A program made the translations under genes and the position numbers. This document shows positions 60,432-61,339 of a stretch of DNA of 64,000 nt, piece by piece. Source of the stretch: Gemmatimonadota bacterium (GTDB taxonomy: Bacteria > Gemmatimonadota > Gemmatimonadetes > Gemmatimonadales > GWC2-71-9). The stretch is from assembly GCA_039586875.1 (NCBI GenBank), contig JBDHJO010000001.1, positions 3,044 through 67,043 of the forward strand, given 5' to 3'. A model generated the notes under the pieces. It had not been told where the DNA came from. It saw nothing but the letters and a program-made list of their open reading frames with translations, and did not search any database. Position 1 is the first letter of the stretch; the number at the start of each line of letters is the position of its first letter.

Positions 60432-60983
60432 CTACGCGTACTTCAGGTGGGTGACGGCATCGCTGCCGTAGAACAACTCGATGTACTTCTCCTGAATCGG
60501 TGTCAGCCTACGCACGGCCCACGTCAGGTACACGAAGTGCGGTTCCGTGGGTGTCCGTCGGAGCGTGAAGCCGCACTCGTCCGGCAGCCGGTTGCCCTTG
60601 CGGGTGTTGCAGACCGAGCAGGCGGTAACCACGTTCGTCCACTCATTGGTACCACCGCGGGAGAGCGGCAGTACGTGATCCCTGGTCAGGCACTCGCGGA
60701 ACCCGAGCTCCCGTTCGCGTCGGCCACAGAACTGGCACGTGTACGAATCGCGGGCGAAGAGGAACGTGTTCGTAACCTGTCGGCGGAACTTCCGCGGGAC
60801 GTGAACGAATCGCACGAGCCGGATGACCGCGGGCTGCGGAAGCGTGAGATAGGCGCTTCGCACAGTGCGGCCGCGATCCGCTTCCACGATCTCCGCCTTG
60901 CCGTCGATGACCAAGCGGAGTGCGCGACGGACCGGAACCATCGTGATCGGCTCAAACGACGCATTCAGCGTAAGACAGCGCAC
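60432..60983 (-). CDS. short HNH endonuclease with PLMP-like N-terminal domain (IshB-like architecture)
   Basis: - HNH core CQFCGRRE...DHVLPLSRGGTNEWTNVVTACSVCNTRKGN.
- N-terminus LTLNASFEPITMVPVRRALRLVIDGKAEIVE resembles the PLMP domain of IscB relatives.
- GTG start is preceded by GGGAGGA.
- No RuvC motifs. Confidence 0.85.
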   Translation of the reverse strand: MRCLTLNASFEPITMVPVRRALRLVIDGKAEIVEADRGRTVRSAYLTLPQPAVIRLVRFVHVPRKFRRQVTNTFLFARDSYTCQFCGRRERELGFRECLTRDHVLPLSRGGTNEWTNVVTACSVCNTRKGNRLPDECGFTLRRTPTEPHFVYLTWAVRRLTPIQEKYIELFYGSDAVTHLKYA

Positions 60984-61073
60984 AACATCCTCCCGACACG
61001 TGCCAAGACAACCCCGCCACGTCCTGACCGGGACGGGCGGGGGAGGTGTGTTGTCACCCCTATTCTATCGGAA

Positions 61074-61106
61074 CCCGTAACACATTGCAATGGGATGTGT
61101 TACGGG
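61074..61106. other. perfect 12-bp palindromic hairpin in the HNH leader
   Basis: CCCGTAACACAT (61074-61085) and ATGTGTTACGGG (61095-61106) with a 9-nt loop TGCAATGGG. It is locally AT-richer than its surroundings. Confidence 0.6.
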
Positions 61107-61339
61107 TTTCGTCCGCGTCGAAGGGGCCGAGGTGCATGCCACGATCGCCTCGGGAGTGCAACCATTCTGCGGCATTGGGCATCAAAACACGTAGCGGCTG
61201 AGGCAGGCGAAACCGTATGTGCCCTCGGTCCGTAGAGAGACCATAGCGGGACGTGTCGGGGATCTCACCGCCCGGTGAGGACACTCGTTTGAGGGGACGA
61301 GCGGGACCATGCAACGCCCGGCCCGACGCGTCTCACACG

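Follow-up and report, generated by a model that had tools for sequence, protein, structure and literature searches.

This work concerns the non-coding spacer upstream of a small HNH nuclease gene of a Gemmatimonadota bacterium (GenBank assembly GCA_039586875.1, contig JBDHJO010000001.1), which was analyzed within a 64,000-nucleotide (nt) stretch of that contig, referred to below as the window. The gene in question (60432–60983, minus strand) has a GTG start codon, its product being an IshB-like protein of 183 amino acids (aa), in which a PLMP-like domain is combined with an HNH domain, and a gap of 426 nt separates it from the PBP1A gene that lies upstream (61410–63698, minus strand; Transgly and Transpeptidase). 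A preliminary description of this region, made from the sequence alone, had regarded some 355 nt of the gap as a hairpin-rich leader of the HNH gene, or an associated non-coding RNA, that could pair with the gene's own Shine-Dalgarno sequence. Our analyses favor a different reading, to which we assign a probability of roughly 0.55, viz. that the spacer comprises two separate units: the promoter and short 5′ untranslated region (UTR) of the HNH gene on the minus strand, and a divergent small-RNA candidate on the plus strand.

The features on which the preliminary description was based are real. The gap, the repeats and hairpins that it listed, and a 10-nt complement of the Shine-Dalgarno region are all present in the sequence, and its observation is to this extent confirmed. 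The hairpins at 61264–61279, 61284–61301, and 61127–61153 all occur in minimum-free-energy folds, and, on either strand, a 435-nt region folds better than shuffled versions of itself, with z = −4.3 for the HNH strand and z = −6.3 for the plus strand. For comparison we have used 80 Gemmatimonadota loci from 80 species (L005–L084; each species was represented by one genome in the scan). The upstream sequence is common to the window and its six nearest species alone (L005–L010; 79–85% protein identity), where a non-coding gap of about 340–450 nt precedes the HNH gene and conserved blocks, found by blastn in L005–L009, are separated by scrambled sequence and by insertions and deletions (indels). 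No conserved open reading frame (ORF) is present in the 426-nt gap. Small ORFs in the spacer whose frames had looked conserved (e.g. one encoding ...VVPLVPS...) were rejected, since indels of lengths not divisible by three disrupt them, as was an 18–29-codon ORF beginning MVA, of which the first three codons alone are kept and whose ATG is lost in L010. Two short patches, RATGGTYGC and GATGCC (minus strand, ~61165–61175 and 61183–61190), are conserved in 6–7 of the 7 sequences; the ATG of the first patch is that of the MVA ORF.

The minus-strand unit begins with a site that resembles a sigma-70-type promoter, TTGCAA-N17-TAGAAT (61090–61062, minus strand), ~80 nt 5′ of the start codon. It is the sole promoter-like match in the region 60300–61500, where shuffled sequences average 0.2 such matches. 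An extended form of the motif, TTGCAA-N4-TTA-N10-TANNNT, is found once each in 12 further species (L005–L009, L011, L016, L017, L020, L032, L033, and L054), always directly 5′ of the HNH start, with no other occurrence in the ~0.5 Mb of loci, and variants with an 18-nt spacer are present in L012–L014. From the position of this site, transcription is therefore predicted to start near 61055, which would give the HNH mRNA a 5′ UTR of ~72 nt. In L032 and L033 (2963–3003), the −10 box (TAATTT) has its end 9 nt 5′ of the GTG, right against the start codon, and the mRNA of these orthologues is predicted to be leaderless.

An inverted repeat (61069–61111), whose 17-nt arms (61069–61085 and 61095–61111) are 94% complementary and which includes the perfect 12-bp hairpin of the preliminary description, straddles the −35 hexamer and lies 5′ of the predicted transcription start. 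The repeat is kept only in part in L005–L009, being imperfect in L005–L008, and it probably represents either an operator or a chance product of the promoter context; if an operator, it may serve a dimeric regulator. At the corresponding place in L010 (~2885–2915), TAACTC...GAGTTA stands where the window has TAACAC...GTGTTA, which constitutes a paired change.

The predicted 5′ UTR contains a terminator-like hairpin (61005–61042, minus strand), in which CCCCGCCCGTCC...GGACGTGGCGGGG (61042–61012) is followed by UUGUCUU (61011–61005). Its folding free energy is −24.4 kcal/mol and it is near-identical in L005–L009. In 30 of 80 sequences (the window and 79 loci), a hairpin whose core is CCCGN/NCGGG and whose tail is T-rich is placed 22–43 nt 5′ of the start, where 0.4 such cases would be expected from the remainder of the loci; it could represent an attenuator, a 5′ stabilizer or merely the terminator of a neighboring gene. 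This GC-rich hairpin (CCCGC/GCGGG; e.g. L041, ~2930–2975, and L017, ~2945–2980) accompanies the HNH gene despite differing upstream neighbors. The Shine-Dalgarno sequence, read from the sequence as GGGAGGA (60988–60994, minus strand), is located 4 nt before the GTG, and GGAGG-type motifs occupy the equivalent place in the orthologues.

On the plus strand, our analyses have identified a multi-hairpin ("cloverleaf-like") element of ~86 nt (61249–61334), which is a modest small-RNA candidate of a narrow clade. In the proposed fold, a closing stem, P1 (61249–61261 with 61322–61334), surrounds three hairpins, viz. P2 (61263–61280), P3 (61284–61301), and P4 (61302–61320); P2 contains the previously listed hairpin 61264–61279, P3 is identical in extent to the hairpin 61284–61301, and P1 includes the segment 61251–61260 that had been proposed to mask the Shine-Dalgarno sequence. 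The element is conserved in all 7 sequences (window and L005–L010), which alone match its covariance model (67–94 bits); a search of the window and of L011–L084 with this model yielded no additional copy, divergent or otherwise. A degenerate-pattern scan of metagenomes yielded 5 matches, each of which duplicates L005, L008 or L010 and is located upstream of the HNH gene. The element is not tRNA-like by ARAGORN, which finds no tRNA or transfer-messenger RNA.

Evidence that this element may have been maintained as a structure comes from the pattern of its changes. Of the cells that the fold pairs, 87.6% are complementary, compared with at most 46% in slid controls, and 9 pairs have changed on both sides, a number that none of 500 shuffles reaches; these figures describe 7 related sequences and a structure derived from those same 7. 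Pairing is complete in P2 (100%) and nearly so in P1 (93%). It is nevertheless conceivable, though doubtful, that the upstream conservation involves no RNA function and reflects recent ancestry, protein-binding sites of divergent promoters or a DNA-level element: the element is restricted to seven closely related genomes, relatedness alone can beat shuffle controls, and the inverted repeat at the −35 hexamer and the short patches resemble operator or promoter DNA. However, neutral sites are expected to be largely saturated at 79–85% protein identity, the sequence between the conserved blocks is in fact scrambled and interrupted by indels, and the pairing survives the 9 double changes, with single changes of the G·U type only.

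The same changes bear upon the strand. P1 and P2 contain 16 G·U cells, distributed over 10 base-pair positions, on the plus strand and no C·A mismatches there; the plus strand is favored because all 16 become C·A on the HNH strand and none arise conversely. The consensus fold calculated by RNAalifold is −40.8 kcal/mol with a favorable covariation term on the plus strand, and −27.9 kcal/mol with an unfavorable term on the minus strand, and in single-sequence folds the plus strand is the more stable in 7 of 7 (−48 to −53 vs. −41 to −49 kcal/mol). It is thus unlikely, as we judge it, that the element acts on the minus strand as a 3′-UTR element of the gene upstream (PBP1A here, argH in the relatives) or as part of a longer HNH transcript. 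Such a role would suit its position directly 3′ of the hairpin of the upstream gene on that strand, where P1 and P2 also fold with compensatory changes; moreover, the P3 loop CCCCUCAA, which on the minus strand is anti-Shine-Dalgarno-like, is kept in the window and L010 while the P3 stem changes (CTCGT/ACGAG vs. GTCGTC/GACGAC). Besides the evidence of the folds and the G·U cells, this alternative has against it that the upstream gene differs, yet the element stays beside the HNH gene.

The small-RNA candidate is preceded, at a distance of ~15 nt on the plus strand, by a motif of the type recognized by extracytoplasmic function (ECF) sigma factors, GAAAC-N17-CGTA (61209–61234, plus strand), which points away from the HNH gene. 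The pattern GAAAC-N17-CGTW has only this one match in the 64-kb window. In the middle of the spacer few alignment columns are invariant over the 7 sequences, those of GAAAC and CGT being among them, and the motif occurs in all 7, with a spacing of N17 in the window, L005, and L007–L010 and of N16 in L006. In sequence, the motif thus has the −35 GAAC/GAAAC, the −10 CGT and the 16–17-nt spacer of ECF-type promoters, whose consensus has been given as tgaAAC/CGTA (PMC5758882). Beyond the element is a strong hairpin (61339–61373), whose 14-nt arms (61339–61352 and 61360–61373) are perfectly complementary. It is located 36 nt past the PBP1A stop codon, a homologous hairpin is found 3′ of argH in L005–L009, and it is likely the terminator of PBP1A (of argH in the relatives); it may also end the plus-strand RNA.

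These features suggest the following arrangement. On the minus strand, the HNH gene, of housekeeping type, would be transcribed from its own sigma-70-type promoter (61090–61062), and its ~70-nt 5′ UTR would open with the GC-rich terminator-like hairpin, acting as a 5′ stabilizer or a leaky attenuator, before the Shine-Dalgarno sequence. On the plus strand, divergent transcription would proceed from the ECF-type motif (61209–61234) through the ~86-nt fold to the hairpin at 61339–61373, which would also end the convergent PBP1A transcript, so that the product would be a stress-sigma-dependent small RNA of ~130–140 nt. Several observations weigh against this arrangement. Both promoters are consensus matches only. 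The loose pattern GAAAC-N16/17-CGT is found 2 times in the 64 kb, where 3.7 are expected, and the support for the ECF-type motif is hence drawn from its conservation in the 7 sequences, because so short and loose a motif is expected 3.7 times by chance. The 7 sequences that define the fold amount to ~5 independent ones (L005 is near L007, and L008 near L009). The register of P3 differs between the window, L006, and L010 on the one hand and L005 and L007–L009 on the other, with 65% of its cells pairing in one alignment. The hairpin at 61339–61373 has no U-tract on either strand, none meeting the U-tract rule of a terminator scan. In the Gemmatimonadaceae, the hairpin before the HNH gene may merely be the terminator of an ilvE-like gene. 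Lastly, the arrangement gives no explanation for the RATGGTYGC and GATGCC patches, which lie between the two promoter-like sites.

The pairing that the preliminary description had placed at the center of its proposal involves ACGUGUCGGG (60992–61001, minus strand), which is next to the Shine-Dalgarno sequence, and the segment 61251–61260. Both are parts of an inverted repeat of 13 nt (60992–61004 and 61248–61260; 92%), which includes the exact 10-mer ACGTGTCGGG/CCCGACACGT. When the upstream sequence was shuffled 2000 times with its dinucleotides preserved, an exact complement of 10 nt or more that overlaps the Shine-Dalgarno sequence appeared in 1.25% of cases (P = 0.0125), a mildly unusual result of a test that was chosen post hoc. 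When the 30 nt before the start codon were compared with anything upstream in L005–L010, no 10-nt complement was found; the longest was 6–8 nt, which is the modal value of the shuffles, and was at unrelated positions. The segment 61251–61260 has a conserved local partner, 61322–61331, within P1, and the 10-mer of the window arises because ACGUGUCGGG happens to resemble one arm of this stem (ACGCGUCGGG). In addition, the promoter-like site at 61090–61062 lies between the two arms, and 61251–61260 is therefore outside the predicted mRNA. The complement being unconserved and a promoter intervening, sequestration of the Shine-Dalgarno sequence is ruled out as a conserved feature; the complement is specific to this genome.

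Searches with Rfam models, including HEARO, revealed no credible match in a 1.5-kb region at E ≤ 10, and no HEARO was found in the whole window at the gathering score; the noise consisted of microRNA models and of a match to sucC RNA (18.9 bits) on the terminator hairpin. No omega-RNA-like partner was thus found by this means. It is highly improbable, then, that the whole ~355-nt stretch is an HNH leader or an omega-RNA-like partner in which 61251–61260 pairs with 60992–61001 so as to mask the Shine-Dalgarno sequence. In favor of this model, the pairing does form when the minus strand is folded to its minimum free energy, shuffles seldom match it, and the omega-RNA of IscB and IsrB is likewise upstream and on the same strand, its last hairpins touching the Shine-Dalgarno sequence as well as the PLMP domain (PMC9581776). 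However, the complementarity is missing from each of the six relatives with this upstream sequence, a conserved promoter-like site separates the arms, the upstream arm is already taken up in a conserved local stem, the element on the HNH strand has 16 C·A mismatches and a worse consensus fold, and neither HEARO nor any other Rfam family is matched. Of the earlier proposals, the long leader accordingly gives way to a predicted promoter inside it and a conserved fold on the opposite strand. The associated non-coding RNA survives in altered form, as a small-RNA candidate on the other strand in a narrow clade and not as a partner on the HNH strand, and the alignment of orthologous upstream regions, which had been suggested as a check, did reveal a conserved structured block, although in six relatives only and with the opposite strand favored.

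The protein encoded by the HNH gene agrees with its preliminary description as an HNH protein of 183 aa without RuvC, as indicated by Pfam, NCBIfam, and a structural model. It carries LTLNASFEPITMVPVRRALRLVIDGKAEIVE, the N-terminal segment quoted there. Pfam recognizes HNH models alone (HNH_5, 7.6e-14; HNH, 6.9e-13; and HNH_4), covering residues 83–138, and gives no match to RuvC or RRXRR even at E ≤ 10. The HNH domain has a Cys4 zinc site, and in an alignment of 50 diverse family members residues C83, C86, C122, C125, H103, N117, and N126 are invariant, while the N-terminal consensus is LVLNASYEPL......RA..L.L.GKAE. The closest HNH domains by sequence are those of IscB and Cas9d. The NCBIfam models for these two match the HNH part only and fall far under their cut-offs, the IscB model covering residues 72–132 alone (41.7 bits vs. 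a cut-off of 175). A structure predicted by AlphaFold2 from a diverse alignment (pLDDT, the predicted local distance difference test, 93) has two small domains only; a shallow alignment (≥72% identity) reached a pLDDT of 44 and was unusable. Foldseek comparison of the model with the PDB returned the HNH domains of Cas9d, IscB, and Cas9. The exact protein is present in Gemmatimonadota metagenome-assembled genomes, and relatives are numerous: among 1.84 billion cluster representatives, 29,731 match at E ≤ 0.001, and 3,495 still do so at E ≤ 1e-10, many being 165–190 aa in length and matching over their full length.

The identity of the N-terminal domain is less readily established. In the AlphaFold2 model it consists of ~residues 1–57 with a beta-beta-alpha-beta-beta order, which agrees with the published PLMP fold of a four-stranded sheet and a helix (PMC9581776). 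The family profile was compared with PLMP sequences of IscB and IsrB by three tests, in which one register was obtained throughout (EPL with PLMP, RA with AR, and GKA with GKA). HMMER placed TbaIscB residues 496–529 in this register at an insignificant 0.2 bits, hhalign gave E 0.015 against the DtIsrB PLMP sequence (from PMC9581776), and hhalign against an alignment of five PLMP fragments gave E 0.0032 but a probability of just 10%. The fragments, which include TbaIscB, HfmIscB, OgeuIscB, and DtIsrB, were taken from PDB alignments and the published paper, and were used instead of a PLMP profile because a search with the 55-aa DtIsrB PLMP sequence returned one protein only, which was insufficient for such a profile. 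Foldseek aligned the 183-aa model with the HNH-less DtIsrB (8dmb) with a probability of 0.98 and E 0.098 over 65 columns, without giving the aligned range. Genuine PLMP domains across the IscB and IsrB lineages match one another only at E ~0.004–0.014, and PLMP is for this reason to be regarded as a short domain that is hard to detect. Against homology, the RRXRR model of Pfam is matched by only 1 of the 50 family members, and the letters PLMP themselves are absent, their place being taken by EPITM in this protein and by EPL in the family consensus. Homology of the N-terminal domain to the PLMP domain of IscB and IsrB, and with it an IshB-type architecture of the protein, is likely but not proven from the profiles and the model. 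The suggestion of an IshB-like protein thus stands firmly for the HNH domain, the size and the absence of RuvC, and in likelihood, by register and fold, for the PLMP domain.

An orthologue of the HNH gene is present in 80 of the 80 loci, with protein identities of 71–86% overall and of 71–76% in the more distant species (L021–L084). PBP1A is 81–88% identical in L006, L008, and L009 and about 46–62% in the more distant loci (40–44% over a few short C-terminal fragments), and since this neighboring protein is so much less identical in the distant loci, the HNH protein is considered to be under strong constraint. Next to an essential-type PBP1A, such constraint on the small nuclease is unusually strong for an uncharacterized protein. 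Downstream of the HNH gene are genes for YjbQ, an AMP-binding enzyme (acyl-CoA ligase) and an NYN protein, whereas the upstream neighbor varies by clade, viz. PBP1A in the window, argH in its six closest species and an ilvE-like aminotransferase in Gemmatimonadaceae. No transposase is found among the neighbors of the gene, either here or in the loci of the relatives, and PADLOC reports weak HNH-domain matches only (PtuB and a type II restriction enzyme) and nothing for a defined defense system. The HNH gene is a phylum-wide gene of the Gemmatimonadota that resides in housekeeping neighborhoods, and it is not an insertion-sequence passenger.

Two further observations concern the history of the locus. 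The argH gene is located between PBP1A and the HNH spacer in L006 (733–2553), where a short argR-like ORF precedes it, and in L008 (1211–2595), and an ORF that ends right before the spacer suggests the same arrangement in L010; in the lineage of the window (61374–61409), the argH region is missing and PBP1A directly adjoins that same hairpin and the spacer, as after a clean deletion or a relocation. In a metagenome contig (L086, 9637–10282), the HNH orthologue is in two overlapping pieces that correspond to query residues 1–58 and 26–181, which points to a frameshift, to a small duplication or to misassembly.

IshB-type proteins have been cited as possible HNH donors on the path from IsrB to IscB and Cas9, and a limited literature search returned no report of experimental work on them. 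The locus described here presents a PLMP-like and HNH protein as a strongly conserved chromosomal gene across a phylum, with its own predicted promoter and a short UTR, and its lack of a transposon or an omega-RNA-like partner argues for a cellular rather than a mobile-element role of this branch. The combination of PLMP and HNH need not imply RNA guidance. To our knowledge, no small RNAs of the Gemmatimonadota have been characterized; the candidate behind the ECF-type promoter is a by-product of this work, which will be of local interest only unless it is expressed.

Comparison with known systems places the two units differently. The plus-strand candidate may be compared with the sigma-E-dependent small RNAs MicA, RybB, and MicL of E. 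coli, which are ECF sigma-dependent small RNAs of envelope-stress regulons. It resembles them as a short structured RNA candidate behind an ECF-type promoter (−35 AAC, −10 CGT) and, in this genome, in adjoining a cell-wall gene (PBP1A). It differs from them in that it has no sequence or Rfam similarity and no U-tract terminator, and its long closing stem around three hairpins departs from the Hfq-type layout of a single-stranded seed and a terminator.

For the HNH core, the best sequence match among solved structures is the Gme HNH nicking endonuclease of Geobacter metallireducens (4H9D; E 7e-07 by sequence alone and 3e-16 with a profile), which differs in having 112 aa and no N-terminal PLMP-like domain. 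Orthologues of the gene are labeled "McrA" by some sources; however, the McrA-type HNH enzymes have their own, different N-terminal DNA-binding domain.

IshB proteins, the relatives of IscB that were set out in 2021, are compared here through the summaries of them in two later papers (PMC10734217 and PMC11610941). As summarized there, they share with the present protein of 183 aa a PLMP-like N-terminus that is followed by HNH, without RuvC. The present protein has EPITM (EPL in the family) in place of the literal PLMP motif, and its gene differs in having housekeeping neighbors with no insertion sequence or TnpA, and no same-strand guide-like RNA at the locus; carriage by a mobile element of the IS200/IS605 type is not seen, a transposase being absent near the gene both here and in the loci of the relatives.

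The IscB and IsrB OMEGA systems share with this locus the HNH and PLMP-like domains. They differ from it in that the present protein lacks RuvC, the bridge helix, and a target-interaction domain, no HEARO is matched, the conserved upstream fold is read from the other strand with a promoter in between, and the anti-Shine-Dalgarno pairing is not conserved; no same-strand structured RNA running into the ORF is seen at this locus, nor any definable guide-like 5′ segment of variable sequence. A further likeness is the structured hairpin directly 5′ of the Shine-Dalgarno sequence, which is the site of the contact between PLMP and RNA in IsrB (PMC9581776). We consider very slight the chance that the PLMP-like domain binds the CCCGCC...GGCGGG hairpin of the 5′ UTR, or that the divergent ~86-nt RNA is a trans-acting partner of the nuclease; binding of the hairpin, if it were true, would amount to autoregulation, a minimal precursor or a relic of the omega-RNA/PLMP contact of IsrB.

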